Assembly: GCA_039589875.1 (NCBI GenBank)
Contig: JBDHGL010000017.1
Coordinates: forward strand, 5,875 to 69,874
Reading direction: 5' to 3'
From: Gemmatimonadota bacterium
Lineage (GTDB): Bacteria; Gemmatimonadota; Gemmatimonadetes; Palauibacterales; Palauibacteraceae
Length of the DNA stretch: 64,000 nt
Made by a program: the position numbers and the translations under genes. Shown one piece after another: positions 1-24,906 of this stretch; the stretch's first letter is position 1, and every line of letters begins with the position of its first letter. The notes beneath the pieces are model-generated. The model saw only the letters and a list, made by a program, of their open reading frames with translations, was not told the origin of the DNA and did no database searches.

Positions 1-1008
1 CCCCTCGGCGGCCTGTTGGCGCTCGGCTTGTCGACCGTGATTTGGAGCGCCGTAGCAGCGGCCAGCTTCGAGTTCGCCCGGGTTTTCCGCGCCTTCGACT
101 ACCGGAGCTTCTTTCGCCGTCTCCTCGGGCCCGCCTGGATCATCTTCGACCTCGCGCAGGTGAGCATCACCCTGCTGGTCACCGCAGTGATCGCGGCGGC
201 GGCCGGCGAGATCTTCGAGGCGGTTTTCTCGCTCCCCTATCGGCTCGGCGTCGTCACGGTAGTCGTATCCATCGCGTATCTCGTGTTCCGCGGAAGCTCC
301 ACGATCGAACGCGTCTTCGCCGCCTGGTCCGGCGTGCTCTACCTGGTCTTCATAGTGCTGTTCGTCTGGTCGTTTCGGGAGTTCGGCGGCGACATCGTGA
401 ACGCCTTCCGCTCCCATCGAAACACCGAGGGATGGATCATTGGCGGCCTGAGCTACGCCGGTTACAACGTCTCGGTAGTGCCGCTCATTCTGTACGTCGT
501 CAGGCACCAAGAGTCGCGCAGGGAATCGGTGACCGCCGGGCTCCTGGCCGGCCCGATCGCGATCTTCCCCGGCTTCCTTTTCTTCATCGCACTTTGTGGG
601 CAGTACCCGGCGATACTCGAACGCGCCATTCCGGTGGAGATGATCCTCGAGCTTCTTGGCTCTCGAGCCTATCGGTTGACCTATCAGATCGTCCTCTTCG
701 GCACCCTCATCGAGACGGGCGCGGGGATGATCCACGCGATCAACGACCGGATCGCCGGAGCCTTCGAAGAACGACGCCGACCGATGCCGCCGGCAGCCCG
801 GCCGGTCGTGGCGTTTCTCTTCCTGGGAACCGCCGCGGGCCTTTCGCGGTTTGGACTGATCGATCTGATCGCGCGCGGGTATGGATCGCTCACCTGGGTG
901 TTTCTGGCTGCGTTCGTCCTCCCTGTACTCACCTGGGGAGTCTTTCTGTCTCGTCAGACGACCGCGCGACCGCCAACCGAAGGAGACCGAGCGGCCGGAG
1001 AATCCTGA
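1..1008 (+). CDS. polytopic integral membrane protein, 5' end probably outside the window (frame is open to position 1; first in-window start candidate is TTG at 16)
   Basis: 330-aa translation with multiple hydrophobic helices; no recognisable catalytic motif; reading frame has no stop upstream to the window edge. Confidence 0.55.
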   Translation, partial: PLGGLLALGLSTVIWSAVAAASFEFARVFRAFDYRSFFRRLLGPAWIIFDLAQVSITLLVTAVIAAAAGEIFEAVFSLPYRLGVVTVVVSIAYLVFRGSSTIERVFAAWSGVLYLVFIVLFVWSFREFGGDIVNAFRSHRNTEGWIIGGLSYAGYNVSVVPLILYVVRHQESRRESVTAGLLAGPIAIFPGFLFFIALCGQYPAILERAIPVEMILELLGSRAYRLTYQIVLFGTLIETGAGMIHAINDRIAGAFEERRRPMPPAARPVVAFLFLGTAAGLSRFGLIDLIARGYGSLTWVFLAAFVLPVLTWGVFLSRQTTARPPTEGDRAAGES

Positions 1009-1145
1009 CGAACCGCCGCCGCGTGTGGAGATCCCGCTTGTCCGGTCTGGGGCGCATCGGGTAGTTTGGCCGCCCCGGCGGAACGGCTCGAGCGTCCGTT
1101 GGCCGGGCCGTACGGGAGCACTTTTCCAATCGAAACGAGGGTCCA

Positions 1146-1934
1146 ATGGCTGATAAGCTCATCGACTACGAAGCGCAGGACGGGATCGGCATCATCACGA
1201 TGGACGACCCTCCGGCCAATACCTACACGCACGACATGATGCGCCAGATGGATGATGCCATCCTGGAGGCGCGCTTCGACGAGGCCGTTCACGTCATCCT
1301 GATCCGCGGCGCCGGCGAGAAGTTCTTCTCCGCCGGAGCCAACATCGGCATGCTTCAGACGGCAAACCCGTACTTCAAGTACTACTTCTGCCTGCACGCC
1401 AACGAGACGCTGAACCGTCTCGAGCAGACGCCGAAGATCGTCATCGGTGCGCTGAATGGGCACACCGTGGGCGGAGGGCTCGAGATCGCCCTCGCCTGCG
1501 ACCTCCGCGTCGCCAAGAAGGGCGGCGGCAAGATCGGTCTTCCGGAGGTCACGCTCGGCGTGCTCCCGGGCACGGGCGGCACGCAGCGACTCGGCCGCAT
1601 GCTGGGCAAGTCCAAGTCGATCGAGCTGATGGCCACGGGCCGCACCTTCGAGTTCGAAGAAGCGCTCGACCTCGGTATCGTCAACCAGGTGCTGGACGGC
1701 GAGGACTTCATGGCCGAAGCGATGGAGTATGCCCGGCAGTTCGCGCCGCCGGGGAAAGCGTCGAAGGCGGTCGGACGGATCAAGCGCGCGGTGTGCAGCG
1801 GCATCGAGGTGCCTTTCTCAGAGGGCCTCGCGATCGAACGGGAGATGCAGCAGCAGCTCTTCGAGTCGGCCGACGCTCGCGAAGGGCTGGACGCCTACGT
1901 CGAGAAGCGTAAGCCGGAGTTCGCCGGCCGCTGA
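1146..1934 (+). CDS. enoyl-CoA hydratase/isomerase (crotonase family)
   Basis: 262 aa; crotonase-fold motifs (..ILIRGAGEKFFSAGANI.., GHTVGGGLEIALACDLRVA). Confidence 0.9.
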   Translation: MADKLIDYEAQDGIGIITMDDPPANTYTHDMMRQMDDAILEARFDEAVHVILIRGAGEKFFSAGANIGMLQTANPYFKYYFCLHANETLNRLEQTPKIVIGALNGHTVGGGLEIALACDLRVAKKGGGKIGLPEVTLGVLPGTGGTQRLGRMLGKSKSIELMATGRTFEFEEALDLGIVNQVLDGEDFMAEAMEYARQFAPPGKASKAVGRIKRAVCSGIEVPFSEGLAIEREMQQQLFESADAREGLDAYVEKRKPEFAGR

Positions 1935-2064
1935 GCTTCGCCCAACCCACATCTTTCCGCGGGTTAACCGCTCGTCTTCGAGGCGGGCGGCCCGCCGGAC
2001 ATGCCGGTAGGAAACGCTCCGGCCGCGGCTCTTCGATCCGTGGCCGAGCTCAAAGGAGATCGTC

Positions 2065-3540
2065 ATGGCGGAAGCGACGTTGACGCGCTCGGTGCCGGAT
2101 ATCCTGGCCCCGGGCCGATTGTTCATCGGCGGCGAGTGGCAGGACGCCGGAAGCGGCCAAACCTTCGAGGTAGTGGACCCGGCACGCGCCGAAGTGGTGA
2201 CCGAGGTCGCCGAAGGAGATGCCGACGACGTCGACCGAGCGGTCCGCGCAGCCCGGGAGGCGTTCGAGGGCTCCTGGCAGCAGACCAGCCCTCGGGAGCG
2301 CGGCCGCCTGCTCTTCAAGCTCGCCGAGCGCCTGGAGGAGCGGAAGAAGGAGATCGCGACGGCCGAGACCCTGAACAACGGGAAGCCGTTGTTCGAGAGC
2401 GGAATCGACGTCGCAATGGCGATCCAGACCTTCGAGTACTATGCCGGCTGGGCGACCAAGATCGAGGGCGAGACGATCCCGGTCTCGGTCCCGTTCCAAT
2501 TCAACTACACGCTGCGCGAGCCGGTCGGCGTGGTCGGCGCGATCGTACCCTGGAACTTCCCGCTGAACCTGGCTTCATGGAAAGTGGCGCCGGCCCTCGC
2601 GGCCGGCTGCACCGTAGTCCTGAAGCCCGCCACCGAGACGCCGCTCACCGCGCTCCTTCTCGCCGACGCGGCCGCGGAGGTCGGCTTTCCGCCCGGCGTG
2701 CTCAATGTCGTTCCCGGCCACGGCTCGACGGCAGGCGAAGCGCTCGTTGCTCACCCCGGAGTGGACAAGATCGCGTTCACCGGCTCGACATCCGTCGGCC
2801 AGAGGATCGCCAGGACGGCCGCCGAGACGGTTAAGCGTGTCTCGCTCGAGTTGGGCGGCAAGAGCCCGAACATCGTCTTCGCCGACGCCAACCTGAAGTA
2901 CGCCGCCAAGGGTGCGTTGAGCGGGATCTTCTACGGAAAAGGCGAGGTGTGCGCGGCCGGCAGCCGGCTGCTCGTGGAGAGCAGCGCCCATCCAGAGCTC
3001 GTCGGGATGGTGGCGGAAGGGGCGAACCAGATGAAGGTCGGCGACCCGTTCGAGAAGGACACCCGGATCGGCGCGGTGGTCTCGGAGAAGCAGATGGAGA
3101 CCGTCCTCGGCTACATCGACAAGGGCGTCGAAGAGGGTGGCCGAGTGGTGGCCGGGGGAGGACGGGCCGACATCCGGCCGGGCTACTTCGTCCAGCCCAC
3201 CGTCTTCGATGATGTGACGCCCGAGATGACGATCGCCCGGGAGGAGATCTTCGGGCCGGTGCTCGCGACGCTCACGTTCGACGACGTGGACGGCGCGATC
3301 GAACAGGCCAACGACTCTCCCTACGGCCTGGCCGCCGCGGTCTGGACAAGCGACGTGAAGAAGGCGCACTACGTGGCGTCGCGTCTCAAGGCCGGCACCG
3401 TCTGGATCAATACGTACAATCTGTACGACCCGGCGAGTCCGTTCGGCGGCTACAAGGAGAGCGGGTACGGCCGTGACCTCGGGCGTCACGCGCTCGACCT
3501 CTACACGCAGACGAAATCGGTATGGGTAAACCTCAGGTGA
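2065..3540 (+). CDS. NAD(P)-dependent aldehyde dehydrogenase
   Basis: 491 aa; ALDH family layout with catalytic-Cys region ([17 protein letters not shown]) and Glu motif; AAGGAG RBS 6 nt upstream of ATG. Confidence 0.9.
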
Positions 3541-4751
3541 ACGATCGCGACCCCGTCGTCATCGGCGCCGTGCGGACGCCTGTGGGCCGGCACGGCGGTG
3601 CCCTGTCCGGCGTTCGGCCGGACGACCTCCTGGCCATCGCGATTCGAGCTCTCGTGGACCGGACGGGGGTTCCAGCGGACCGGGTTGAGGACGTGATCGC
3701 GGGCGCAGCGAACCAGGCAGGAGAAGACAACCGGAATGTCGCCCGTATGGCCGGCCTCCTCGCCGGACTGCCGATCGAAGTGGCCGGACAAACCGTGAAC
3801 CGTCTTTGTGGGTCCGGTCTTCAGGCCATCGTTTCGGCCGGCCACGCGATCCGGGCGGGCGAGGGGGATGTGTTCATCGCCGGCGGCGTGGAGAGCATGT
3901 CCAGGGCTCCGTGGGTGATGCTCAAGCCCGCTGCCGGATTCTCGCGGGTGCCCCCACCGACGGCCGATACGACCGTCGGCTGGCGGTTCATCAACCCGAA
4001 GATGCCGGAGGAGTGGACCATATCGCTCGGCGAGACGGCGGAGGTCGTGGCCGACGAGCATGGAGTCACTCGGGAAGAGCAGGACGCCTTCGCGCTGGAG
4101 AGTCAGCGACGGACGGCGAGAGCGATGGAAGAGGACCGATTCGCGGCGGAGATCGTCCCGGTCGAAGTGCCACAGCGAAAAGGCGACCCACTCGTCGTGA
4201 ACCGCGATGAGCACCCGAGGCCCGAGGTCACCTCGGAAGGGCTCGGAAAGCTCCGGCCGGCGTTTCGCAAAGGCGGCACGGTCACGGCCGGTTCCGCGTC
4301 GGGAATCAACGACGGCGCTGCCGCGGTGCTCCTCACCAGCCGTGAGGTTGCGCGCGAGCTCGGCCTCCAGCCGATGGCGCGGCTCGTTGCCTCAGCCGTC
4401 GCGGGCGTGGATCCGTCGCGGATGGGGATCGGCCCCGTACCGGCAACCCGGAAAGCTCTGGAGCGGGCGGGGCTCACCGTGGCGGACCTGGACCTGGTCG
4501 AGCTGAACGAGGCTTTCGCGGCGCAGGCGCTACCCTGCATTCGGGAGCTTGGGCTCGATCCGGAGAAGGTGAACGTGAACGGAGGCGCGATCGCGCTCGG
4601 ACACCCGCTTGGATGCACCGGTGCCAAGCTGTTCACGACGCTCGTGCACGAGCTGGATCGACGGGACGACCGGACCGGCCTCGTCACCATGTGCATCGGC
4701 GTGGGCCAGGGGATCGCCACCCTGGTGCACCGCGAGTCATCGGACGGATGA
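3522..4751 (+). CDS. acetyl-CoA C-acyltransferase (thiolase II, PcaF/PaaJ-like)
   Basis: 409 aa; thiolase N- and C-terminal signatures ([29 protein letters not shown]); 19-nt overlap with upstream ALDH. Confidence 0.9.
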
Positions 4752-5626
4752 GCGAGGATAACGGCGTGAACGACGAAGCCCGCATCCTGGTCTCCGTGGA
4801 CGGAGCCGTCGGCACACTGACGCTCAACCGCCCGGAGAAGCTCAACTCCTTCGTCGACACCATGCGTGACGAGCTGGCTGAGGGGCTGGAGAGCCTCGCT
4901 CGGGACGATCGCGTGCGCGCGGTGATCGTAACCGGCCGCGGCCGGGCTTTCTGTACCGGAGCGGACATCCGCTACCTGTCCGAGATGGTCGAAAGCGACC
5001 GGTCGGAGGAGTTTCGCAGCCTCGTCGAGGCGGGGCGGCGAGTGGTCTTGACGATCGCCGAGATGCCCAAGCCGGTCATCGCTGCGATCAACGGCCCGGC
5101 CGCTGGAGGAGGCGCCAATCTGGCGCTGGCCTGCGATCTCAGATGGGCCTCCGATCGGGCATCGATCGGCCAGACGTTCAGCAATATCGGGCTGCACCCC
5201 GACTGGGGGGGAGCCTACTTCGTCCCCCGCCTCGTGGGACCGGCGCGCGCCGCCGAGCTCTTTTTCCTCGGGGAAATGGTGGATGCGCAGACGGCCCTGG
5301 AGATCGGACTGTTGAACCGCGTCGTGCCGCACGACGATCTGATGGATGACGTTCGACAGTTGGCGGAACGCCTTGTTGCCCGACCCGCTCTGGCCGTTCG
5401 GCTGGCGAAGCAGGCGGTTCGACGGAGCCTGGCAGCCGACATCGAGGAGATGCTGCAATACGAACTCGAGGCACAGGCGGCATGCTTCCGCACCGCCGAC
5501 GCCCTCGAGGGAACCCGGGCGTTTCTGGAGAAGAGAGCTCCCCGGTTCGGCGGTCGCTCGGCCGAAGAAGCTTCAGGCGAGAAAGATCTCGCCGCCGCAG
5601 CCGCCGCCGCGGACGAGGCGCGATGA
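4748..5626 (+). CDS. enoyl-CoA hydratase/isomerase
   Basis: Crotonase fold ([37 protein letters not shown]); ATG overlaps thiolase stop (ATGA); track ORF 4613 has a spurious N-extension. Confidence 0.85.
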
Positions 5627-6162
5627 GGGAGGACGGCGGGCTGCGCGAAGCGACCGAGAGCGACCTCGATGAGCTGGTTGCTCTGTGGATCCATTACATC
5701 CGGGACCACCGGCACAACCCCGCCTACAACCGCGTGGCGCGTACCGGGTTCGTGAGTCGGCGAGCCGCGTTCGCGAACGACATCAGCGACGAAGCGGCGG
5801 CCGTTTTCGTGGTGGCGAGGGAGGATGGCGGTTTGGATGGCATGATCACGTGCCGGACCGAGGGGAACCTGCCCTACTTCCAGCCGCACCGGATCGGCCG
5901 GATCCAAACGCCCTATGTCCGGCCCGACGCCCGCAAGAAGGGTAATCTGAAGAAGCTGTTGACGGCCGCGTACCGGTGGGCACGCGAGCGGGAACTCCTC
6001 GAAGTCCGGCTGTATGTCGGTGCCGACAACGTCCTGGCCAACGTGATCGCCGAGGAGCTCGGATTCGACGCCGTTGGAGTCGTCCGGCGAAAGGCGATCG
6101 ACTGGAGTCGCCCACCGGAGCAACAGATCCGAAAACCGGGGGGACCTGACCATGAACGCTGA
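5623..6162 (+). CDS. GNAT family N-acetyltransferase
   Basis: 179 aa from internal ATG overlapping upstream stop (ATGA); acetyl-CoA binding-like motif (RPDARKKGNLKKLL); N-extended track ORF rejected. Confidence 0.65.
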   Translation: MREDGGLREATESDLDELVALWIHYIRDHRHNPAYNRVARTGFVSRRAAFANDISDEAAAVFVVAREDGGLDGMITCRTEGNLPYFQPHRIGRIQTPYVRPDARKKGNLKKLLTAAYRWARERELLEVRLYVGADNVLANVIAEELGFDAVGVVRRKAIDWSRPPEQQIRKPGGPDHER

Positions 6163-7018
6163 GGGAGCGCCGGGACCGGCACTCGCTGTAATCGGGGCCG
6201 GCACCATGGGACATGGGATAGCTCAGGTGGCGGCGCTGGCGGGCTACGACGTCAGCCTGATCGATGTGAGCGAAGAAGCGCTGGAGAAGGCGCTGGGCCG
6301 GGTCCGCGCTCAGCTCGACAGAGGCGTCGAGCTCGGGAAAGTAGAGCCCGGAGCACGCGACGCGGCCGTCGGCCGGCTCACTGCATCGTCCGATCCCGCT
6401 GCGATGCGCGGGGCCGAGATCGTCGTCGAAGCCGTTCCGGAGATCATCGACCTCAAGCGCCAGATTCTAGCGAGCGCAGCGGAACGCGTGGACCCGGACA
6501 CCCTCCTCGCAACGAACACCTCTTCCTTGTCGATCACCGCCATTGCGGACGCCGTGCCCGGACCGGAGCGCGTCATCGGCATGCACTTCTTCAACCCGGT
6601 CCACATCATGGAGCTCGTCGAGATCGTGCGCGGAGACCGCACCGGTCCCGACGCTGTCGAACGAGCCCGTGACGTCGCGGAGAAGCTCGGCAAGACGCCG
6701 ATCGTGGTGAGCGACTCACCGGGCTTCGCATCCTCGCGTCTCGGTATCGCCCTGGGTCTGGAAGCGATTCGAATGGTCGAGACCGGCGTGGCCACGGCAG
6801 AGGATATCGATCGGGCGATGGAGCTCGGTTATCGGCATCCCATGGGTCCCTTGCGACTCACGGACCTGGTGGGCCTGGACGTGCGGCTCGAGATCGCCCG
6901 CTACCTGCACCGCGAGCTGGGAGATCGCTTCCAGCCGCCGGAGCTGCTCGAGCGGATGGTGGAGGAAGGAAACCTCGGGAAGAAGGCCGGTCGAGGCTTC
7001 TACGTCTGGCGAGAATGA
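6152..7018 (+). CDS. 3-hydroxyacyl-CoA / 3-hydroxybutyryl-CoA dehydrogenase
   Basis: Rossmann GxGxxG (VIGAGTMGHGIA) plus 3HCDH C-terminal domain (..GFASSRLG.., GPLRLTDLVGLDV). Confidence 0.9.
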   Translation: MNAEGAPGPALAVIGAGTMGHGIAQVAALAGYDVSLIDVSEEALEKALGRVRAQLDRGVELGKVEPGARDAAVGRLTASSDPAAMRGAEIVVEAVPEIIDLKRQILASAAERVDPDTLLATNTSSLSITAIADAVPGPERVIGMHFFNPVHIMELVEIVRGDRTGPDAVERARDVAEKLGKTPIVVSDSPGFASSRLGIALGLEAIRMVETGVATAEDIDRAMELGYRHPMGPLRLTDLVGLDVRLEIARYLHRELGDRFQPPELLERMVEEGNLGKKAGRGFYVWRE

Positions 7019-7062
7019 ATCCGGCGCTCGCAGAGCGCCGGCAGTGATAAGGAGCGATCGAG

Positions 7063-7842
7063 ATGAGTGACGTTCTGCTGAAGGAGAAACTGGACGGCCG
7101 CGTGGCCCTCCTCACCATAAACCGACCCGACAAGCTGAACGCCCTGAACGGCGAGGTTCGCTGCGCCCTGATCGGGGCTCTCGAGGAGTTTCGGACCGAC
7201 GACGATGTCCGAGTCGTCGTGCTGACGGGGGCAGGCGAGAAGGCGTTTATCGCCGGAGCCGACATCGGTGAATTCAAGGACGCGAGGCCGACCGAGCAGT
7301 ATCGGTCCATGCAGGCGGGCAACATCTACTCGGCCATGGAGGCTTTCCCCAAGCCGATCATCGCCATGATTAACGGCTACTGCCTGGGCGGGGGCTGCGA
7401 GCTATCGATGGCCTGCGACATCCGGATCGCCTCGGACCGGGCCCGGATCGGCCAGCCGGAGATCAACCTCGGGCTGATTCCGGGGGGCGGCGGAACCCAG
7501 CGACTGCCGCGCCTCGTCGGCGAGGGCCGCGCCATGAAGATGATTTACACGGGAGAGATGATCTCCGGAGAAGATGCCGGAAGGATCGGCCTGGTCGACG
7601 AGGTCGTCCCGGCAGACGAGCTGAAAGAGCGCACGCTGGAGATCGCCCGCGTGATCGGCTCTCGGTCACCGATCGCACTCCAGGCAGCCAAGGAGAGCAT
7701 CCTGGCGGCCCGCCGCATGCCGATGGACCAGGGCCTGCAGTTCGAGCGGGCCTGGTTCAGCCTGCTCTTCTCGACCAGCGACATGGACGAGGGCGTGAGC
7801 GCCTTCTTGGAGAAGCGACCGGCTGAGTTCACGGGCGATTAG
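7063..7842 (+). CDS. enoyl-CoA hydratase (short-chain crotonase)
   Basis: 259 aa; crotonase motifs (VVVLTGAGEKAFIAGADI, INGYCLGGGCELSMACDIRIA). Confidence 0.9.
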   Translation: MSDVLLKEKLDGRVALLTINRPDKLNALNGEVRCALIGALEEFRTDDDVRVVVLTGAGEKAFIAGADIGEFKDARPTEQYRSMQAGNIYSAMEAFPKPIIAMINGYCLGGGCELSMACDIRIASDRARIGQPEINLGLIPGGGGTQRLPRLVGEGRAMKMIYTGEMISGEDAGRIGLVDEVVPADELKERTLEIARVIGSRSPIALQAAKESILAARRMPMDQGLQFERAWFSLLFSTSDMDEGVSAFLEKRPAEFTGD

Positions 7843-7911
7843 AGAACCCGGACGCCCCGATCCGCATGAATCGCCGCGGAACCGGGCGCTGAAACGGTAA
7901 GGCCTGATAAC

Positions 7912-7946
7912 ACGAAGGCCCCGCCGCCAGCAGGGCCTTCTTTTCG
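7912..7946. terminator. putative bidirectional intrinsic terminator between crotonase (+) and rpmA (-)
   Basis: 8-bp perfect stem GAAGGCCC/GGGCCTTC followed by TTTT on the + strand; sits in a convergent intergenic region. Confidence 0.45.
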
Positions 7947-7975
7947 AAATCCGGTCGCGGGATCGCGCGCCTACC

Positions 7976-8233
7976 TCAAACCTCTGCCAGCACGCTTACC
8001 GTCTTTCGCCCGGCCCGGCCGGTCGAGAACTCCACAACGCCGTCGGCGAGGGCGAACAGCGTGTCATCCCGCCCCCGGCCCACGTTCCGCCCCGGATGGA
8101 TCCGAGTGCCGCGCTGCCGGACGATGATGCTCCCGGCGCTTACAATCTGACCGCCATACCGCTTCACACCGAGGTATTTCGGCTTGCTGTCACGGCCGTT
8201 GCGGCTCGAGCCTACACCCTTCTTATGAGCCAT
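7976..8233 (-). CDS. rpmA: 50S ribosomal protein L27
   Basis: 85 aa, [16 protein letters not shown]... canonical L27 N-terminus. Confidence 0.95.
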
Positions 8234-8238
8234 CTGGT

Positions 8239-8814
8239 CTACTCCTCGTCAGCCTGGGCGCGGATCGCCTTCTGTACATCGCCCTTGAGAATACGGCCGC
8301 CGGCGCCCGAACCCTCGATCTTGGTGAGATCGAGCCCGTTTTCCTCGGCGAGCGTCCGCGCGGCATCGGTGATATCGATCTCAGCGGCCGGCGCCTCGGC
8401 CTCCGGCTCGGCCGCTGCCACCACATCCGGTTCAGCTGCCGCCTCGGTGATGACGGCCTCCTCAGCGGCCGGCACCTCTTCCTTCTTGGGCCGAGGCTTC
8501 GCCTTTCCAACCGTGATCTCGGTCACCCGGACCTCCGTGAAGCCCTGCCGATGACCCTGCTTCTTTCGGTAGCCCTTCCGCCGCTTCCGCTTGAACACCA
8601 CTATCTTCTCGCCCTTGCCGTGCCGGACGACTTCCGCGGCGACGGACGCGCCGTCCAGGGACGGCTGGCCGACCTGAATCTGCCCGTTCGTCTCGGCGAG
8701 GAGAACGTCGAACGTGACGGTATCTCCCGGCTCCGCCTTCAGGCGCGGCAGACGAAGGGTCGATTCGGGCTCGGCCCGAAACTGCTTCCCGCTGGCTTCT
8801 ATGATGGCATACAT
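8239..8814 (-). CDS. rplU: 50S ribosomal protein L21 with C-terminal Ala/Pro/Glu linker and peripheral subunit-binding (E3-binding) domain
   Basis: N-terminal ~105 aa is canonical L21 ([17 protein letters not shown]..); residues ~110-150 are an [11 protein letters not shown]-type linker; C-terminus [34 protein letters not shown] matches the PSBD consensus of 2-oxoacid dehydrogenase E2. Confidence 0.9.
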
Positions 8815-9125
8815 GCAGTCGATCTCTTGGCTTTGACGAATTTACGAAAGCCCACAAAGCTAGTCGGCCCATCTGCGGCGGTCAACTTCACCTCGTGACC
8901 GAGCCGTTGCGGCGAGCCGCACTCATCTACAGCGGGAACCGTTGCTCGTTCCGCTCCTCGTTACGCGGCCTCCTGGTCGCAGGACCGGGCAAGATTCGGC
9001 ACTTCCGAAGGCTCGAACCCAACGCCTCGGAAATCCCGTATGGAAAAGGAGGGTGGCTTCCCGCGGGCCCAGCCAGGCAGGACGGACCGACCGCTCAATC
9101 GACCGACTGACAGAGAGATGAAACG

Positions 9126-9698
9126 ATGGAGATGTTTTTAGCCCTGATCCTCGGTGTCGGCCTATCCGCCGCCGCGGGGTTTCGCGTGTTCGTTCCTCTG
9201 CTCGGCATGAGCATCGCCGCGCAAAGCGGCCATCTCGAGCTCGCCGCCGGGTTCACCTGGCTGGCCAACCCGATCGTGACGGTCGCCCTCGGTCTGGCCA
9301 CCGTGCTCGAGATCGGAGCCTACTTCATTCCGTGGCTGGACAACGCGCTGGACACCGTCGCCACGCCCGCGGCCGTCGTGGCGGGTACGGTGATGACGGC
9401 CTCTCTGGTTGGTGACATGTCGCCGTTCCTCCGTTGGGGGCTCGCCGCCATCGCAGGTGGCAGCGTCGCCGGAGCGGTGCAGGGGGCCACGGTCGTGGCG
9501 CGGGGAACGTCCTCGCTGACGACCGCCGGCCTCGGCAACCCGCTCCTCGCCCTGACCGAGCTTTCGGCCTCGGCCGCCATTACGGTTCTGGCGATCGCGC
9601 TGCCCCTGGTCGCGCTCGCCCTGGTGGCGGTCGCCCTGCTGGCGATGCCGATGCGAAGACAGCGAAGACGAGCGCTGCCCGCCTATGGCCCTGGCTAG
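9126..9698 (+). CDS. DUF4126-like integral membrane protein
   Basis: 190 aa, 5-6 predicted TM helices, Gly/Ala-rich; RBS-like GAGAGA upstream. Confidence 0.6.
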   Translation: MEMFLALILGVGLSAAAGFRVFVPLLGMSIAAQSGHLELAAGFTWLANPIVTVALGLATVLEIGAYFIPWLDNALDTVATPAAVVAGTVMTASLVGDMSPFLRWGLAAIAGGSVAGAVQGATVVARGTSSLTTAGLGNPLLALTELSASAAITVLAIALPLVALALVAVALLAMPMRRQRRRALPAYGPG

Positions 9699-9709: not shown

Positions 9710-11236
9710 TTACGCCACCGCGTAGCGGCTCGTGACGTCCTGATCGGAGGGAGCGGCAAGCAGCCGGTACTCATCCGCCTTGATCAGCGGATCGTCGCGA
9801 AAGTCGAGATCGATCTTGCACTCCCGCTTCATGATCTTGATGAATTCGGGTTCCTTCTCCAGCAGATAGAGCGCCACATCCGGGTGGATCCGGACGGTGA
9901 GCCTCCGGTTCTCGCCGGCCGACGCCGCACGCCGGATCGCCTGCTCGACCCTCCTGAGCACGGTCTCCGGTGAGAAGACGCGGCCCGTGCCATCGCAGTA
10001 CGGACAGGGCTCGGACAGCATGTGGTACAGGCTCGGCCGCACGCGCTGGCGGCTCATCTCGAGCAGCCCGAGATCTGAGATCCCGAACACCTTGGTGCGC
10101 GCCCGGTCCCTGCCGACGTGGGACTTCATGGCCTGTTGGACTCGGTCGCGAAACTCCGGCTCGTCCATGTCGATGAAATCGACGACGATGATCCCACCGA
10201 TATCCCGAAGGCGGAGCTGTCGGGAGACCTCGGCTGCGGCGTCCAGGTTGGTGCGGAGGATCGTCTGTTCCGCATCCTTTTTCCCGGTGTAGCGACCGGT
10301 GTTCACATCGATCGCTACGAGCGCCTCAGTGGCCTCAATCACGATGTGCCCACCGGATGCGAGCTCCACCTTGCGGCCGTACGCCCGGAGGATCTGCTCC
10401 TCGATCCCCAGCTCGTCGAATATCGGCGTCGCCCCACCATAGACCTTCACCCGATCGAGCAGCTCAGGACTCACCTGGCCGAGGTACGATTTGATCTCGC
10501 GAGCCAGCTCGCGCGAATCGACGGTGAGCGAGTCGATCCGATCGCTGAACAGGTCGCGGATGATCCCGCTCGTCAGCTTGGCTTCCTCGTGAACGAGGGC
10601 CGGTGCTTCGACCCCCTTCATGGCCTCCTGGACCTTCTCCCAAGCGGTGAGCAGCGAGGTGAGCTCCTGCTTGAAGGCCTTCTTGGTGAGCTCCTCGCCC
10701 ACGGTGCGAACGATCACACCGCCCGGCTTCTTGGCCAGCATGTCCCGAGCCATCTTCCGCAGTCGCGATCGCTCGTCGCGATCGTCAATCTTCCGGCTCA
10801 CTCCGACATGGTCGCTGCCCGGCATGTATACGAGGAAGCGTCCTGGCAGGGATACCTGGGTCGTGACGCGCGGACCCTTGGTGCTGATCGGCTCCTTCGT
10901 AACCTGTACGAGGAGATCCTGACCGCGGGACACGAGATCCTGGATTGGCGGATACCGACCGGATCGCCGTCCGCCGCCGCCACCGCCGTTATCCTCGTCG
11001 TCGTCTTCGCGCTCGGCAGCGTCGGAGGCGTGGAGGAAGCCCGACTTCTCGGTGCCGATATCGACGAAGGCCGCCTGGATGCCGGGAAGGACGGCGTCTA
11101 CACGACCGAGGTATACATCGCCGACCATGCGCTGAGCGTCCTCACGCTCGTGCATGAGCTCGACCAGACGGCCGTCCTCGAGGATCGCGACCCGCGTCTC
11201 TTGACCGGCCGCGTTGATGACGATCTCGCGCCGCAT
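9710..11236 (-). CDS. rng: ribonuclease G (RNase E/G family)
   Basis: 508 aa; S1 domain then RNase E/G catalytic core (DVYLGRV, IVVDFIDM, zinc-link CPYCDGTGRV). Confidence 0.9.
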   Translation of the reverse strand: MRREIVINAAGQETRVAILEDGRLVELMHEREDAQRMVGDVYLGRVDAVLPGIQAAFVDIGTEKSGFLHASDAAEREDDDEDNGGGGGGRRSGRYPPIQDLVSRGQDLLVQVTKEPISTKGPRVTTQVSLPGRFLVYMPGSDHVGVSRKIDDRDERSRLRKMARDMLAKKPGGVIVRTVGEELTKKAFKQELTSLLTAWEKVQEAMKGVEAPALVHEEAKLTSGIIRDLFSDRIDSLTVDSRELAREIKSYLGQVSPELLDRVKVYGGATPIFDELGIEEQILRAYGRKVELASGGHIVIEATEALVAIDVNTGRYTGKKDAEQTILRTNLDAAAEVSRQLRLRDIGGIIVVDFIDMDEPEFRDRVQQAMKSHVGRDRARTKVFGISDLGLLEMSRQRVRPSLYHMLSEPCPYCDGTGRVFSPETVLRRVEQAIRRAASAGENRRLTVRIHPDVALYLLEKEPEFIKIMKRECKIDLDFRDDPLIKADEYRLLAAPSDQDVTSRYAVA

Positions 11237-11248
11237 CGATTCGGCGCG

Positions 11249-12481
11249 CTAGGTCCGGAAGTGTTCCAGGATGTCTCGCGAGATCACGATCTTCTGGATC
11301 TCGCTCGTTCCTTCTCCGATCTCAGTGATTTTTGCGTCTCTCATCATCCGTTCGACCGCGTATTCGCGTGAGTAGCCGTACCCGCCGTGGAGCTGCACAG
11401 CCTTCGTCGTGACATCCATGGCCGCCTCCGAAGAGAACAGCTTGGCCATGGATGCCTCGGTCTTGTGAGGCTTGCCCTCCATACGGAGGCGAGCGGCGTG
11501 ATAGGTCATGAGGCGCGATGCATGAATCTGCGTGGCCATCTCGGCCAGCATGAACTGCACGCCCTGGAAACGATTGATCTTCTTACCGAACTGCTCGCGC
11601 TCATCCGTGTATCTGGCGGCCAGCTCGAACGCCCCCTGGGCGATGCCGAGCGCGTGCGCGGCGATCCCGATCCGGCCACCGTCCAGCGTGTCCAGAAAGA
11701 CGGGAAAGCCCTTGTTCTCTTCCCCCAACATGTTTTCGGCCGGCACCTCCACGTCCTCGAGAATGAGCTCACGAGTGTCGGAGGCGTTCCAGCCCAGCTT
11801 GCGGAGTTTCTGGCCGGATGCGAAGCCAGCCATCGGCTCGAGCTCGTCGCTGTGGCCGAAACCCAGGCCCTTCGCGACATCGAGATCACAGGTTTCCTTC
11901 GTGAGGATGAAGGCGCTGATCCCGCGGTTTCCCTCTCCGGGCGACGTCGATGCGGCAAGAACGAACACCTCGCCGACCCCACCGTGCGTGATCCATGTCT
12001 TCTGACCGTTGAGGACGTACCGGTCACCCTTACGCTCGGCGACCGTCTGCGTCCCACCGGCATCGGAACCGGCGTTCGGCTCCGTGAGCGCCAAGCCGCC
12101 CAGCACCTGGCCGCCAGCCAGCGGCGTCAGATATTTGCGCTTCTGCTCCTCCGTTCCCCAGCGGTGGATTGGCGTGCAGCAAAGTGATATGTGGGCGCCG
12201 ATCGTAATCGAGTGGCTGGCATCGATCCTGGCGAGCTCTTCGCCGGCGATCACGCTGGCGAGCAGATCCATGCCGGCGCCGCCGTACTCCTCCTCGAATG
12301 GAATCCCGAACAGGCCGAGCTCCGCCATCTTGGCGGCGTTCTCCCACGGGAACTCCTCGGTCTCATCGTGATGCTCCGCGACCGGAGCGATCTCCGATTC
12401 TGCAAACTCGCGAACCATGTCACGCATCATGACGTGATGGTCCTCGAGATAAACGCCCAAATCGCCGGATATCCCGGCCAT
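11249..12481 (-). CDS. acyl-CoA dehydrogenase
   Basis: 410 aa ACAD fold; GGGAGG RBS 7 nt upstream. Confidence 0.9.
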
Positions 12482-12571
12482 CTATGTCCTCCCGACCCTC
12501 GATATTCGGATCTGCGAAACCTCCCAATGTACGAGGCGGGCCGGGCCCAGCAAACTCGCCGGCTCAAAAGT

Positions 12572-14017
12572 TCAGCGGCTGGCGGACCCTCCAGAGCAAC
12601 GATCACACCCGGTGCAGCGAGGCACGCTCTCACCGAAATACCTGGCGATCGTGGCGCGACGACAGAGGCAGGCGGTTACGTATTTTCTCATTTGAGCGAA
12701 CCGCCAAGACGCTCGGCGCCGACCGCGCGTCACGACGCTGATGTCGATCCGACGCTCTGAGCCTGGCCCTCGGATGTAAAGCACACGCGGGCCGGTCGAG
12801 CGCGACCCTCTCCGCACGCAACCGAACTCCTCGAGCAGGCGAAGCGCGGCCCGAAGCTCGGGCTCCGGCACATGCCTCAGATTGCGGCGCAGCATACGCA
12901 ACGGCACCGGCCCGGGAGGGAGCGCCTGGTACACGCGCAGTAGGCTCCGTCCGGAGGGCCAGCTCTGCCGGATCAGACTGTCCTGAACACGGCCGTCGGT
13001 ACTTCCCGCGATCAGCAGACACTTCGCCGGCTCACCATCTCGGCCTGCCCTCCCGGCCTGCTGAACGTACGCCTCCAGCGATCCGGGCAAACCCAGGTGG
13101 CAGACGAGCCGGACGGAGGGATGGTCGATGCCCATGCCGAAAGCACTGGTCGCGCACACGGCTCGCAGCTGGCCGGCCAGAAAGCGCACCTGGATGTCCG
13201 ATCGAGTCTTTGCGGGAAGCCCCGCGTGATAGGGCTCGACCGCGATCCCTCGCCGCTTCAGAACTTCGCACAGCCGAACCGATCGTTCCCGGGTGGTCAC
13301 GTAGACAATCGCAGGCCCATCGGCTTCGCGAACAGCGGCGATGACCTGCCTGACTCCCTGATCCAAGCGTTTTGTCTGCGTCACCCGGTAGCTCAGGTTC
13401 CGCCGGTTGACGCTGTTGACGATCCGGCGCGGCGACCTCAGCCGCAGCGACTCGACGATGTCGTCCCGTGTCTCGGGCGTAGCCGTCGCCGTGAGCGCCA
13501 GGCACGGCGGGGCACCGGTGATGCGGCGAAAGGGAGCGATCCGGCGGTAGGCGGGACGGAAGTCGTGCCCCCACTCGCTGATGCAGTGAGCCTCGTCGAC
13601 GGCCAGCCGGGCCACGCTCCGGCCGGCGAGGAGCTCATGAAAGCCCCTCGCCTGTAGCCGCTCCGGCGACACATAGAGCAGCCTGATCTCCCCCGAGCGA
13701 ACGGCGCGGGAGAGGCGCACCCGTTCGGACGGCACCGTGACGCTGGTGAGCGCGGCAGCCGGAATGCCCCGCCGTGAAGCTGCGCTCACCTGATCTTGCA
13801 TCAGCGAGATGAGGGGCGAGACGACGATCGTCAGACGGGAGTCGAGCAGCGCAGGGACCTGGAAGCAGATTGATTTTCCGCCCCCCGTCGGCAGAACTCC
13901 GAGAACGTCCCCACCCGACAGGACGGCGCGGAGGACTCTCTTTTGAGCCGGGCGGAATTCCCGGAAGCCGTAGTGCCGGCGAAGGACAGCGAGTGCAGGC
14001 TCGAGATCCGGCGGCAT
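12572..14017 (-). CDS. recQ: RecQ-family ATP-dependent DNA helicase (short form, no HRDC)
   Basis: Helicase motifs (LPTGGGKS, VDEAHCISEWGHDFRP) and RecQ zinc-binding C-terminus (CRR..C..CDRC). Confidence 0.9.
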   Translation of the reverse strand: MPPDLEPALAVLRRHYGFREFRPAQKRVLRAVLSGGDVLGVLPTGGGKSICFQVPALLDSRLTIVVSPLISLMQDQVSAASRRGIPAAALTSVTVPSERVRLSRAVRSGEIRLLYVSPERLQARGFHELLAGRSVARLAVDEAHCISEWGHDFRPAYRRIAPFRRITGAPPCLALTATATPETRDDIVESLRLRSPRRIVNSVNRRNLSYRVTQTKRLDQGVRQVIAAVREADGPAIVYVTTRERSVRLCEVLKRRGIAVEPYHAGLPAKTRSDIQVRFLAGQLRAVCATSAFGMGIDHPSVRLVCHLGLPGSLEAYVQQAGRAGRDGEPAKCLLIAGSTDGRVQDSLIRQSWPSGRSLLRVYQALPPGPVPLRMLRRNLRHVPEPELRAALRLLEEFGCVRRGSRSTGPRVLYIRGPGSERRIDISVVTRGRRRASWRFAQMRKYVTACLCRRATIARYFGESVPRCTGCDRCSGGSASR

Positions 14018-14039
14018 GCACCAGCGTCAGGCCACCCTC

Positions 14040-14741
14040 TCAACTCTCCCTCAACACCTCCGCAGTCCAGCGCTCGATCACATCGGCCAGCTCGCCCAGC
14101 ACCTCGTCCCAGGTCCGGCCCGTGCGCTTCAGGACCTTGAACGAGTGGTCCGCGTCCTGGACCACGTGCAGGGTGCTACCTGCCAGCTCCTCGCAGATCG
14201 GTCTGAGCAGATCCAGGTCGGCCAAGCGATCCCGGGTCCCCTGGAGAAACAGCATCGGCTTGCCGACATCGGGCAGATGACCTGCGCGATCGATGGACGG
14301 CCGGCCGACGGCGTGAAGGGGAAAGCCGAGAAACACGAGTCCTTCGACCGGCTGCAGCGGAGCGGCCGCCGCCGCGAGGGAGGCCATCCGCCCACCCATC
14401 GACTTGCCGCCCGCGAACAGCGGTAGGCCCGGAGCCTCACGCACGGCGGCGGCAACGGCCGACCGGATGGTAGCCAACAGGATCGGTTGAGGATTGGGAC
14501 GCCGCTTCCCCTGCTCCATGTAGGGGAACTGGTAGCGCAGAGTAGCCAGCCCCCGGTTCGCCAGCAGCCCGGCCACACACTCCATGAACGGGTGGCGCAT
14601 GCCGGCGCCAGCGCCATGGCCCAGAACGAGAAGCGCCCGCGAGCCGGGGGGCGCGATCAGCAGGCCCGACACCTCCCCGGAGCTCCTCGACGCCTCGAAC
14701 CGAACTTCCTTTGCCGCACCGGCCATCAGATTCCCCAGCAA
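14040..14741 (-). CDS. alpha/beta-fold hydrolase (COG3571/KANL3-like)
   Basis: 233 aa; nucleophile-elbow GGKSMGG, acid and His (DHSF) in canonical order. Confidence 0.75.
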   Translation of the reverse strand: MLGNLMAGAAKEVRFEASRSSGEVSGLLIAPPGSRALLVLGHGAGAGMRHPFMECVAGLLANRGLATLRYQFPYMEQGKRRPNPQPILLATIRSAVAAAVREAPGLPLFAGGKSMGGRMASLAAAAAPLQPVEGLVFLGFPLHAVGRPSIDRAGHLPDVGKPMLFLQGTRDRLADLDLLRPICEELAGSTLHVVQDADHSFKVLKRTGRTWDEVLGELADVIERWTAEVLRES

Positions 14742-14748
14742 CCGGCGC

Positions 14749-15483
14749 TCATACCGTGAGCTCCAGGCCGTCCTCCGCGCACTCCAGCTCGAGCGAACCG
14801 GCGCGAGCCAACATCTCGTCGCTCATGTGGGTGCAGACCAGCCGGTCGCAGCTCAGCTCGTCTCGCTTGCCAAGAAGCGTGACGTAGTCGGTGTGAAGCG
14901 GAACCGTTCGATCGAAGGTGTACGCCTCGCAGATGAACAGATCGGCACCTTCCGCGGTCCGGAGAAGCACATCCGTCCACTCGGTGTCCCCGGAGTAGGC
15001 GATCACCTTGCCGGCGATCTCGATTCGCAGGGCGTGCGGGAGGGAAGCGGGAGCGTGAAGCACTTGGAAAGCCGTGACGACACAAGCATCCACCGGCACG
15101 GGTTCTTCGGCCACCCACTCGACGAAACGCAGATCGTACAGAGGCGTGACCTGAGAGGAGCCTGGAAACAGGACTTCCATCGCGGCCTTGACCCGCCCCT
15201 CGACCCCCGGAGGACCGGCGATCGTGAGCGGCTCGGTGCGCCGCGAGACGAGCTGCGTGTCGATCAGGAAGAACGGGATCCCACCGAAGTGATCCCCGTG
15301 GAAATGCGTGACGAGGATCGCGTCGATCTCGTTCGGCGGGACGCCCCAGCGCTTCATCGCGATGAGGGCCGAGGCTCCACAGTCGATCAGAAAGCGTCCC
15401 CCGGGATGGCGCACGTCGAAGCAAGTGAAAAAGCGGCCGCCGCTGGCGAAGGCGTCGCCGCTGCCAAGAACGCGGAGCGTCAC
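14749..15483 (-). CDS. MBL-fold metallo-hydrolase
   Basis: 244 aa from a GTG start; HxHxDH (THFHGDHFGG) and downstream His/Asp ligands; C-terminal part of a composite 487-aa track ORF. Confidence 0.7.
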   Translation of the reverse strand: MTLRVLGSGDAFASGGRFFTCFDVRHPGGRFLIDCGASALIAMKRWGVPPNEIDAILVTHFHGDHFGGIPFFLIDTQLVSRRTEPLTIAGPPGVEGRVKAAMEVLFPGSSQVTPLYDLRFVEWVAEEPVPVDACVVTAFQVLHAPASLPHALRIEIAGKVIAYSGDTEWTDVLLRTAEGADLFICEAYTFDRTVPLHTDYVTLLGKRDELSCDRLVCTHMSDEMLARAGSLELECAEDGLELTV

Positions 15484-15494
15484 CCGGCCGTCGG

Positions 15495-16061
15495 TCAAGC
15501 GCCCCCTACCTTCGCGTGGCGAAAACAGTCGACCGTGTGATCGTTTACCAGACCGGCCGCCTGCATGAACGAGTAGCAGGTGGTCGGTCCGACAAAGCGG
15601 AAGCCCCGCTGCCTCATATCGCGGCTCATCGCACGGGATTCGGCGGTCTCTGCAGGAAGCTCCGACAGCTCCCGCCATCCGTTCACGATCGGCTCTCCGC
15701 CGACGAAGCTCCACACGTAATCCGCGAAGCTCCCGATCTCGGACTGGACCTCCAGGACCTTTCGGGCGTTGGTGATCGTCGACTCGATCTTGCCTCTGTG
15801 GCGCACGATCCCCGCGTCGCCCAGAAGCTGCTCGACCTTCCGGTCGTCGAACGCCGCGACGTTGGACGGTTCGAAGCCCCCGAACGCCCGCCGGTAGTTC
15901 TCGCGCTTGTTCAGGATCGTCGACCAGCTGAGGCCGGCCTGCGCGCCCTCCAGGGTAATGAGCTCGAATAGTCGTCTGTCGTTGCGCAGCGGGACGCCCC
16001 ACTCGAGATCGTGGTACTCGATCATCAGCGGCGACCCCCCGGCCCAGCTGCATCGCGTCAC
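15495..16061 (-). CDS. tag: DNA-3-methyladenine glycosylase I
   Basis: Near-colinear with E. coli Tag (..RCSWAGGSPLMIEYHDLEWGVP..YSFMQAAGLVNDH..C..H); GTG start at 16061 overlaps the upstream stop (GTGA); alternative ATG at 16025. Confidence 0.85.
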   Translation of the reverse strand: MTRCSWAGGSPLMIEYHDLEWGVPLRNDRRLFELITLEGAQAGLSWSTILNKRENYRRAFGGFEPSNVAAFDDRKVEQLLGDAGIVRHRGKIESTITNARKVLEVQSEIGSFADYVWSFVGGEPIVNGWRELSELPAETAESRAMSRDMRQRGFRFVGPTTCYSFMQAAGLVNDHTVDCFRHAKVGGA

Positions 16062-16282
16062 GACGAAGCGTCCTCCATCGGATCCCGATCGTCGGGGGCG
16101 GCCGCCCTTCGGCCCAACCGGAGGGTGAGAGCCGCGATGAGAAGTCCGGCTCCCAGTCCCGCGAAGAAGTCGTTGTCCCGGATCGCGCCGACCAGCCAGA
16201 CGGCGCCTCCACCCACGGCGAGGCCGATCTGCAGCCGAAGCCACCAACCGACCGTGGCGGTGGACTCCTCGGAGCTGCTCAT
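16058..16282 (-). CDS. hypothetical small 2-TM membrane protein (74 aa)
   Basis: Internal ATG of a longer spurious ORF; two hydrophobic helices (VGWWLRLQIGLAVGGGAVWLVGAI / FFAGLGAGLLIAALTL); stop overlaps tag GTG. Confidence 0.35.
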   Translation of the reverse strand: MSSSEESTATVGWWLRLQIGLAVGGGAVWLVGAIRDNDFFAGLGAGLLIAALTLRLGRRAAAPDDRDPMEDASS

Positions 16283-16313
16283 GCGGGGTGTGGCCGGGTC
16301 CCGAGCGGGTCGG

Positions 16314-16967
16314 CTATTCCAGGTGGCGGCTGATCGGGGCTTCTTCCGTGCGGGCGCCCCAAGCGATCGTGGCCGAGCAGGCGATGCCCCAAACGATTCC
16401 GAAAAGAGCGACGGCCACGAAGGCCAGCGGTCCGTAGTCCAGCCCGAACCAACCGGCGTGGCGGTCGAGCGGGAGCACCTTGAGCAGCATGTAGGCGGTT
16501 CCCGCGCCGCCTGCCACGATCCCTCTCGCCAGATAGGACCCGCCGGGGACGTAGGCATACAGGACGCCGAACGCGATTCCCCCGAAGAGCGCGTGCCCGA
16601 TGCCGAGCCCTAGGACGACCACCCCTTCTCCCGAGCCGATCGGGAGCCCAAGGAGGCCGAGCACGCCGGATGAAGCGGAGAGCCACGCTGCTATCCGCAC
16701 CGCCATTAATCCGAGCAGACCACCCAACAGCCCGAGACCCAGGCGTGCACTCAGGTCAAGCGCTCCTTCCGAAGCCGGGCCGTAAGCTCCCTGGGCCAGC
16801 GCGAGGGCCGTGAACGCCAACGCGGCCACGAGCAGCAGAACTCCGCCTCCAACCGCGTTTCGGCTGCCGGCGGCGACCAGCTGAAGGCCGACGCCCAGAG
16901 ACACGACGGCCAGCACGAGCGCCAGGCCCGATGGAAACATCTCCACGCCCGTCTCTGAATCCGTCAT
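16314..16967 (-). CDS. hypothetical Gly-rich polytopic membrane protein
   Basis: 217 aa, ~7 TM helices, no recognised family. Confidence 0.55.
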   Translation of the reverse strand: MTDSETGVEMFPSGLALVLAVVSLGVGLQLVAAGSRNAVGGGVLLLVAALAFTALALAQGAYGPASEGALDLSARLGLGLLGGLLGLMAVRIAAWLSASSGVLGLLGLPIGSGEGVVVLGLGIGHALFGGIAFGVLYAYVPGGSYLARGIVAGGAGTAYMLLKVLPLDRHAGWFGLDYGPLAFVAVALFGIVWGIACSATIAWGARTEEAPISRHLE

Positions 16968-16986
16968 CGCCGCGAGCCGTCTCCCT

Positions 16987-17754: not shown

Positions 17755-17772
17755 TTCTCCGCTCGAAATCTC

Positions 17773-23128: not shown

Positions 23129-24847
<1,719 letters not shown>

Positions 24848-24906
24848 CTCGACCCCATACTACCGCCCGCTATCACCCGTCGTTCCGGCGAGAAGCGGAG
24901 CTAAGA

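Follow-up and report, generated by a model that had tools for sequence, protein, structure and literature searches.

A ribosomal protein bL21 carrying a flexible linker and a C-terminal PSBD-type domain in a clade of Gemmatimonadota, and its possible role as a docking arm

The 64-kb stretch of DNA analysed here (the window) contains on its minus strand, at 8239..8814, an rplU gene for a 191-residue protein in which ribosomal protein bL21 is joined through a linker to a peripheral subunit-binding domain (PSBD). The gene is defined by the list of open reading frames, by matches to Pfam families PF00829 and PF02817, and by the occurrence of an identical protein in at least three metagenomes. Its reading frame comprises an ATG start and 191 codons, with the stop codon at 8239-8241. 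The rpmA gene for bL27 (7976..8233, minus strand; PF01016, E = 3.5e-38) starts 5 nt past this stop codon. Upstream of rplU lies an RNase E/G family gene (9710..11236, minus strand), identified through the PF10150 annotation of an identical contig and through tblastn synteny. The genes around rplU have functions in beta-oxidation and housekeeping. No gene for E1, E2 or E3, and no other candidate client of the PSBD, was found in the window or in the other loci that we fetched. An Rfam search of 7800-9300 gave no leader RNA 5' of rplU, even at E<=1, and the L20 gene of the source organism does not lie within the window.

The gene order RNase E/G-rplU-rpmA is common to Gemmatimonadota with and without the tail (tblastn synteny), and rpmA is directly downstream of rplU in 29 of the 29 Gemmatimonadota loci searched (L001-L029), tail or no tail. 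Because this synteny holds in both groups, the tailed gene is orthologous to the plain rplU of related organisms, and it is the ordinary, single-locus rplU of its host.

The all-beta bL21 core occupies residues 1-101 (8512..8814, minus strand; strands E2-E101 in an AlphaFold2 (AF2) model). Pfam Ribosomal_L21p (PF00829) matches residues 1-100 at E = 1.3e-35 and 122 bits against a cut-off of 27, with an alignment that spans the whole domain (profile positions 1-99 of 99), and the NCBIfam L21 equivalog TIGR00061 scores 105 bits against a cut-off of 43.7. These results bear out an earlier note on this DNA, which, without giving a strand, had described the first ~105 residues as a normal L21. The linker follows at residues 102-146 (8377..8511, minus strand). 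It begins with a short basic stretch, GKAKPRPKK, and continues with an acidic stretch rich in Ala, Glu, Pro and Val. The same note had likened this segment to the flexible linkers of E2 chains, in keeping with its Ala/Glu/Pro-rich make-up and its disorder in the AF2 model (pLDDT 39-51).

The PSBD-like domain fills residues 147-190 (8245..8376, minus strand) and is defined by PF02817, AF2 and Foldseek. A PF02817 (E3_binding) search gave a significant match to residues 151-181 (E = 6.2e-12; 46.0 bits against a gathering cut-off of 23.7) that covers profile positions 6-36 of 36. When residues 136-191 were compared with all PDB sequences using phmmer, each of the 33 matches was a PSBD. Weak alignments of several NCBIfam E2 equivalog models cover residues ~104-188, which correspond to the linker plus the PSBD. 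The two peptides quoted in the earlier note (19 and 34 residues) are present in the translation as given. In E2 and E3BP chains the PSBD stands between the lipoyl and catalytic domains, and the L21-tail PSBD does not have this placement: Pfam detects neither a Biotin_lipoyl nor a 2-oxoacid_dh domain in the 191-residue protein, where bL21 is the sole other domain.

We also considered membership in the long-form L21 families NF008915 and NF008916, and rejected it on scores of 98.2 against 193 bits and 91.5 against 281 bits. These matches end at query residues 153 and 171, the 98.2-bit match reaching model position 158 of 223 and the 91.5-bit match position 163 of 216, and the alignments cover the bL21 core and part of the linker.

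Structure prediction gives a consistent picture of the tail. In the AF2 model of the full protein the core has pLDDT >90, residues ~105-145 have the low values already mentioned, and confidence rises again to 92-94 across residues 147-190, where two helices (150-159 and 177-190) are predicted to flank a G-x-G loop. A model of the tail by itself has a pLDDT of about 90. The first 35 matches of this model in a Foldseek search of the PDB are all PSBDs, superposing with an rmsd of about 1 Å (0.6-1.5 Å) and target TM scores of 0.8-0.89. They include PSBDs crystallized on E3 (3rnm, 2eq7, 1ebd) and on E1 (1w85, 9h1n), and the tail is 38-44% identical to PSBDs crystallized with E3 or E1 (3rnm, 2eq7, 1w85, 9h1n). 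Structure prediction of the C terminus, which the earlier note had proposed as a check, thus gives a PSBD fold, and we conclude from these models that the tail domain is predicted to adopt a bona fide PSBD fold.

A fusion of this kind could in principle be a frameshift, an assembly chimaera, a mis-called reading frame or a decaying relic. Several lines of evidence led us to reject these explanations. The identical 191-residue protein, with the same neighbours, occurs on contigs of at least three separate JGI metagenomes. Among 2,874 significant homologues the best 120 (53-100% identity) all combine PF00829 with PF02817, which is the outcome of a check on rplU orthologues that the earlier note had suggested. 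Altogether the L21-PSBD architecture is present in >120 distinct proteins and in 13 GTDB species-representative genomes. At third codon positions the tail and the core have similar GC contents (0.78 and 0.84), and rpmA follows the tailed reading frame after only 5 nt. The earlier note had named two findings that would overturn its proposal: the lack of a significant PF02817 match, whereas such a match was obtained, and a frameshift or assembly fusion with a separate downstream reading frame. In tail-less relatives, neither the interval from rplU to rpmA nor the surrounding +/-6 kb contained a separate PSBD reading frame, and a tail-profile HMM run on all six-frame reading frames of the window and 83 loci matched only L21 tails. 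Codon-aligned Nei-Gojobori estimates for 14 orthologues put dN/dS at 0.19 in the core and at 0.24 in the PSBD, with a dS of about 1, indicating purifying selection on the tail. Given the recurrence of the same protein in separate metagenomes, the shared architecture and this selection, we regard the tail as real and an artefactual or relic origin as almost inconceivable.

The three parts of the protein have diverged to different extents. Mean pairwise identity is 0.76 in the core, 0.71 in the PSBD and 0.34 in the linker. The linker is of low complexity (A 28%, E 18%, P 12%, K 11%, V 10% across homologues), varies in length from 19 to 79 residues, with 107 residues in one locus (L013), and ranges in net charge from -19 to +6 with a median of -3; some orthologues have a basic, Lys-rich linker (up to +6) yet retain the PSBD. 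The retention of the PSBD while the linker drifts in length and sequence suggests that a specific surface is being maintained, as would be expected for a tether that bears a docking domain. Four family members (P0053, P0073, P0123 and P0065) have two or three PSBDs in tandem, and such variation in PSBD number is what would be expected of a recruitment scaffold.

Among GTDB species-representative genomes the tail is found in 13 Gemmatimonadota metagenome-assembled genomes, in proteins of 181-256 residues. Plain L21 is found in the Longimicrobiales (104 residues), in the Gemmatimonadaceae (104-110 residues) and in every other phylum retrieved. All named organisms among the best 120 homologues belong to the Gemmatimonadota, and Candidatus Palauibacterales is represented in this set. 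When the adjacent RNase E/G protein is placed on a neighbour-joining tree, the 14 loci with the tail group in a single clade, and this monophyly fits a single acquisition of the tail. The locus of Candidatus Carthagonibacter (L005) and the tandem-domain protein P0053 place the tailed clade at or near the order Candidatus Palauibacterales. An ancestor of the clade that includes this order probably captured the module from the linker-PSBD segment of an E2. A cluster look-up of the E2s whose PSBDs are nearest to the tail named one taxon, for an Entotheonellia E2, and did not identify the donor.

Canonical PSBDs reportedly bind through an electrostatic zipper with acidic residues of E3, a description credited to Mande et al. 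1996, and the importance of the arginines R135, R139 and R156 is said to have come from that work and from mutagenesis in the Perham laboratory. We aligned the tail with the Bacillus stearothermophilus PSBD, whose sequence we confirmed to be exactly that of PDB 2PDD, 1EBD_C and 1W85_I. In this alignment R135 corresponds to R153, R139 to E157, R156 to R174 and P132 to D150. Across 129 L21-tail domains, R153 is present in 93%, R174 in 100% and a glutamate at position 157 in 89%; in several orthologues, in particular those with tandem PSBDs, A, E or I takes the place of R153. Two interface prolines are typical of E2 chains, where at least one is present in 125 of 127 PSBDs retrieved with the same profile (at the helix-1 N-cap in 93% and after the G-x-G loop in 72%). 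Both are absent from 123 of the 129 L21-tail domains. Across the L21 tails the first position is Asp in 84% and the second is Ala or Lys, with 0% Pro. The source protein has D150 and A171 at these positions, which we matched by their 21-residue spacing to human Pro133 and Pro154. These human prolines, 21 residues apart, are described as making up a hydrophobic patch to which the peripheral subunits bind (PMC11700594).

The net charge of the 38-residue L21-tail domain is about 0 to -1 (median -1) and as low as -10, compared with +3 to +7 for canonical examples taken from the PDB sequence matches. Residues T149, D150, E157, E158, E167, L176 and K177 are invariant and particular to the L21 tails. 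The earlier note had stated that the tail matches the PSBD consensus almost residue for residue; this stands for family and fold, but both typical prolines and one of the three key arginines are replaced. Judged by its residues, therefore, the domain is a PSBD by family and fold yet appears to have a remodelled version of the known partner-binding face. Since the prolines, the R139 equivalent and the charge are all altered, the partner may differ or may be bound in another way. The remodelling does not set the L21 tails cleanly apart from canonical PSBDs, because they score 59 bits against an E2-PSBD profile and 62 bits against a profile of proline-less non-E2 PSBDs.

These features bear directly on the proposal of the earlier note that the domain recruits E3 or an E1-like partner to the large subunit, that is, that the tail is a functional canonical PSBD bringing E3 and/or E1 to the 50S. 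A PF02817 score well over threshold, an rmsd of about 1 Å to E3- and E1-bound PSBDs, an E2-like linker and near-universal retention of the R135 and R156 equivalents are all as this proposal would have it. Set against them are the loss of both interface prolines in 123 of 129 domains, the glutamate in place of R139, the neutral to acidic charge, and the orthologues in which R153 itself has given way to A, E or I. We consider canonical recruitment unlikely, though it deserves to be kept in view. The earlier proposal is thus partly supported: its bL21-linker-PSBD architecture holds and two of the three zipper arginines are kept, but both prolines are lost and the domain is not basic. If the canonical reading were true, translation would be coupled to central carbon or redox metabolism, or E3 would be titrated between ribosomes and E2 cores.

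A search of 1.84 billion representative proteins with the tail profile returned 14,402 matches at E<=1e-3, the top of the list being made up of proteins with multiple PSBDs. One match, P0267, consists of a Ribosomal_L20 domain (E = 1.8e-42), a linker and two E3_binding domains, and is encoded within an rpmI-rplT-pheS-pheT operon. The bL20-linker-PSBD arrangement is present in all 120 of its closest homologues, the named ones being Rubrobacter and including the cultured R. tropicus (P0342). Two PSBDs are present in 97 of the 120, three in 13 and one in 10. Both prolines are missing from 238 of the 243 PSBDs in these proteins, which have a median net charge of -6 and score 61 bits against the proline-less non-E2 profile compared with 48 bits against the E2 profile.

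The Rubrobacter bL20 proteins resemble the tailed bL21 in combining a 50S protein with an Ala/Pro/Glu-rich linker and one or more proline-less acidic PSBDs, lineage-wide and within a canonical ribosomal operon. They differ in their carrier, in their phylum (Actinomycetota), in usually having two domains and in being more acidic, and their equivalent of R135 is shifted or lost. Because carrier, phylum, domain number, charge and profile scores all differ, the Rubrobacter bL20-PSBD is a fusion independent of the bL21-PSBD. In bacterial 50S structures the globular parts of bL20 and bL21 meet directly over an interface of 984 Å2 (PMC4881015). One patch of the 50S has thus been fitted with flexibly tethered PSBD-type domains in two unrelated phyla, and the arrival of unrelated phyla at the same solution on touching 50S proteins argues for a function at that site.

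PSBDs outside E2 chains also occur in a Ser/Thr kinase with three PSBDs, in small proteins with two C-terminal PSBDs, and in proteins with 3-4 PSBDs spaced by Q/A/G-rich repeats. P0129, P0130 and P0124 lie on short contigs among unannotated reading frames. A viral link of the proline-less PSBDs was not detected: nine non-E2 PSBD proteins and the L21 protein gave no PHROG match, and a structural search of BFVD returned nothing significant (best E = 0.22). For canonical recruitment these surveys point in both directions, in that carriers such as the three-PSBD kinase suggest that the PSBD could be a general E3/E1 docking module, but the Rubrobacter bL20 tails are strongly acidic.

The reading that we prefer is that bL21-PSBD is a docking module of the swinging-arm type that captures a soluble client at the solvent face of the 50S, and we judge its chances to be about even. 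We are led to it by the architecture, the predicted fold, the disordered linker, the selection on the tail, the restriction to a clade with a single origin, and the convergence with bL20. The bL21 core would anchor in the 50S beside bL20, ~45 disordered and mostly acidic linker residues would project from the solvent face, and a 40-residue mini-domain of PSBD fold would sit at the tip. Most likely the tethered domain would act by fly-casting, capturing a soluble protein that would then be held within ~10-15 nm of the large-subunit surface; this reach is an estimate that allows up to 0.38 nm for each of ~45 residues, using the conversion in PMC11700594. By analogy, the arm would work as E2 chains do in holding E1 and E3, and as the bL12 stalk does in holding translation GTPases. 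The interaction surface would have been remodelled after capture of the module, with loss of both prolines and one arginine and gain of new invariant residues. On the strength of these losses and gains, binding of the client probably departs from the canonical E2-E3/E1 mode.

This docking-arm reading presupposes that the long form would be incorporated into ribosomes and that the domain would bind a partner. Of the named candidates for this partner, E3 (dihydrolipoamide dehydrogenase) is the strongest, though its chances are below even. Several points weigh against the docking-arm reading. The conservation of R153 and R174, the equivalents of E3/E1 hot spots, would fit retained E3/E1 binding; the nearly equal scores of the L21 tails on the E2 and proline-less profiles sit awkwardly with a remodelled face; the window and the fetched loci offer no E1, E2 or E3 gene or other candidate client; and the tail could be removed after translation.

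Alternatively, the tail might have no specific partner, the linker serving as an acidic entropic bristle and the domain as a stable cap that together alter the properties of the ribosome surface. Surface solubility, hydration or anti-aggregation effects, for example in saline or desiccating habitats, would be the kind of property involved. In favour of this reading, the two lineages with such tails, the Gemmatimonadota related to Palauibacterales and the genus Rubrobacter, both live in settings that are marine, saline or prone to stress. The linkers, for their part, are of low complexity and mostly acidic (median -3, down to -19), but a bristle would hardly call for a folded domain that is kept at 71% identity with a dN/dS of 0.24, nor invariant surface residues such as T149, E157/E158, E167 and K177. 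PSBDs are very small, fast-folding and stable (titles of PDB entries 1w4e-1w4k), as would suit a cap; the same PSBD, however, also follows basic Lys-rich linkers (to +6) in some orthologues, and its tandem duplication argues for valency over bulk charge. We therefore consider a partner-free tail distinctly improbable.

The docking-arm reading can be extended, with less confidence, in two directions. The PSBD arms on the adjacent bL21 and bL20 may be a convergent 'second stalk' of the bacterial 50S that recruits a metabolic or redox enzyme (E3/E1 or a new client of the proline-less PSBD) to translating ribosomes, a proposal that we offer as a doubtful one; if true, protein synthesis would be directly coupled to central carbon or redox state. 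That bL21-PSBD provides a genuine physical coupling of the ribosome to 2-oxoacid dehydrogenase or redox enzymes seems to us similarly improbable.

The L21-tail domain stems from the best-understood swinging-arm system in metabolism. If its client is E3 or E1, the translation machinery would be physically and directly connected to the pyruvate/2-oxoglutarate node. With any other client, the proline-less PSBDs would be a subfamily with a new binding specificity, one that is also present in many uncharacterized non-E2 proteins. As Rubrobacter species with the bL20 version, such as R. tropicus, R. xylanophilus and R. radiotolerans, are in culture, the function is experimentally tractable. Lineage-specific extensions of ribosomal proteins are common, but to our knowledge a folded, selectively maintained docking domain on a long flexible arm is uncommon, the bL12/P-protein stalk aside. 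The parts of the protein (bL21, the PSBD and Ala/Pro linkers) are already known. Full-text literature searches, in which 'bL21' is swamped by the E. coli strain BL21, returned no paper that describes L21-PSBD or L20-PSBD proteins, in agreement with the earlier note, whose author was not aware of any characterization of the architecture, and we found no published description of the L21-PSBD combination. Automated pipelines record both Pfam domains, under source names that read just '50S ribosomal protein L21/L20'.

The PSBD of E2 chains is the relative of the tail in sequence family, in its two-helix fold, in the G-x-G-x-x-G-R-I loop and in its position at the end of an Ala/Pro-rich linker, and the L21 tail retains counterparts of Bacillus R135 and R156. 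The L21 tail differs in residing on a ribosomal protein that has neither a lipoyl nor a catalytic domain, in lacking the prolines and the R139 equivalent, in being neutral to acidic rather than basic, and in having invariant residues of its own.

Other bL21-family proteins are also known to carry additions. In Schizosaccharomyces pombe, Aco2 is an aconitase fused to mitochondrial ribosomal protein L21 (bioRxiv 10.1101/2019.12.16.879015). Here too a bL21-family protein is joined via a fast-evolving linker to a TCA-related component of central carbon metabolism, but Aco2 places a whole enzyme N-terminal of L21, is eukaryotic, involves alternative polyadenylation and has no docking domain. Spinach chloroplast bL21c, with 97 extra residues, demonstrates that bL21 tolerates long solvent-exposed and partly disordered extensions (PMC5071890). 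Unlike the L21-PSBD protein, neither bL21c nor the NF008915/NF008916 long forms have a PSBD reported in their extensions. A further link between a 'ribosomal protein', in the historical sense, and recruitment of E3 is provided by MRPS36/KGD4, which tethers E3 to the E2o core of the eukaryotic OGDHC (PMC9974300). MRPS36/KGD4 differs from the L21 tail in acting within the dehydrogenase complex, off the ribosome, and in not being a PSBD.

The closest functional parallel on the ribosome itself is with the bL12 (L7/L12) stalk and the eukaryotic P-proteins, in which an anchor and a flexible Ala/Pro-rich hinge carry an acidic globular domain of small size, with which soluble factors are caught. The resemblance is one of function only, as bL12 and the P-proteins share no sequence or fold kinship with L21-PSBD and occupy another position on the 50S.

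A profile search with the L21 tail, the linker and PSBD-like domain that end the rplU product, identified a bL20-linker-PSBD protein, P0267 (locus L084, 582-1427), with an associated family (P0271-P0389) that includes P0342 of Rubrobacter tropicus. In this family bL20 carries a C-terminal extension composed of an Ala/Pro/Glu linker followed by PSBDs, usually two but ranging from one to three, which are acidic and proline-less (that is, they lack both of the E2 interface prolines). The architecture is retained in all 120 of the 120 closest homologues, from Rubrobacter (Actinomycetota), and the fused gene is located in the rpmI-rplT-pheST operon. bL21 is the direct neighbour of bL20 on the 50S subunit, and the bL20-PSBD protein arose as a fusion independent of bL21-PSBD.

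The region upstream of rplU (window 8815-9125, about 310 nt) is non-coding. Even with the cut-off relaxed to E<=1 it matches no Rfam family, the known L21 leader included; it could hold a lineage-specific leader or regulatory element. Beyond it, between RNase E/G and rplU and on the opposite strand to both, is a gene for a DUF4126 membrane protein (window 9126-9698, plus strand). This gene is a local insertion: tblastn detected no counterpart of it at the other 29 Gemmatimonadota loci, in which RNase E/G directly adjoins rplU. On both sides of rplU (window 1-7842 and 11249-21111) are densely packed genes for fatty-acid or branched-chain catabolism, comprising enoyl-CoA hydratases, thiolase, 3-hydroxyacyl-CoA dehydrogenase, acyl-CoA dehydrogenase, AtuA and carboxyltransferase, and the second of these blocks is followed by methylmalonyl-CoA mutase and MeaB (window 23129-25950). 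The window also encodes an NFACT/RqcH-like protein (37137-38852, plus strand; PF05833 and PF05670), homologous to the ribosome quality-control factor whose binding target is the stalled 50S subunit; although it shares the window with rplU, no sign of a link to the L21 tail was seen.

Non-classical PSBD carriers extend to proteins of other kinds. The top PDB sequence match to the L21 tail, 7qjm_A (E=1.8e-7), is a PSBD at the N-terminus of an alpha/beta-hydrolase of 388 aa, which is another such carrier. In P0125, a 472-aa protein from a JGI metagenome, three tandem E3_binding domains (161 bits) lie C-terminal to a Ser/Thr protein kinase domain. Because these domains retain the N-cap proline, they may dock the kinase onto E3/E1.

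Two further groups contain the PSBD in multiple copies. Proteins of the first (P0122, P0124, P0126, P0141, P0146, P0148, P0154 and P0240; 310-564 aa) form a family that shares an N-terminus of the general form 'M(T/A)EKQ..ALEKLNRGIQES' and possesses three or four proline-less PSBDs with long Q/A/G-rich repeats between them; no other Pfam domain was found. Their contigs (for example, locus L087, with P0124 at 994-2319) are short and the context is uninformative. Members of the second group (P0129, P0130, P0152, P0155 and P0167; loci L085 1805-2302, L086 94-591 and L088 2239-2739) are only about 150-170 aa long, with two proline-less PSBDs at the C-terminal end. PHROG and BFVD searches gave no support for a phage relationship of these small proteins. 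Their genes sit among co-directional ORFs without Pfam matches, in one example in the order 503-aa ORF, 137-aa ORF, small two-PSBD protein and ~300-aa ORF, a layout similar to that of a phage head module.
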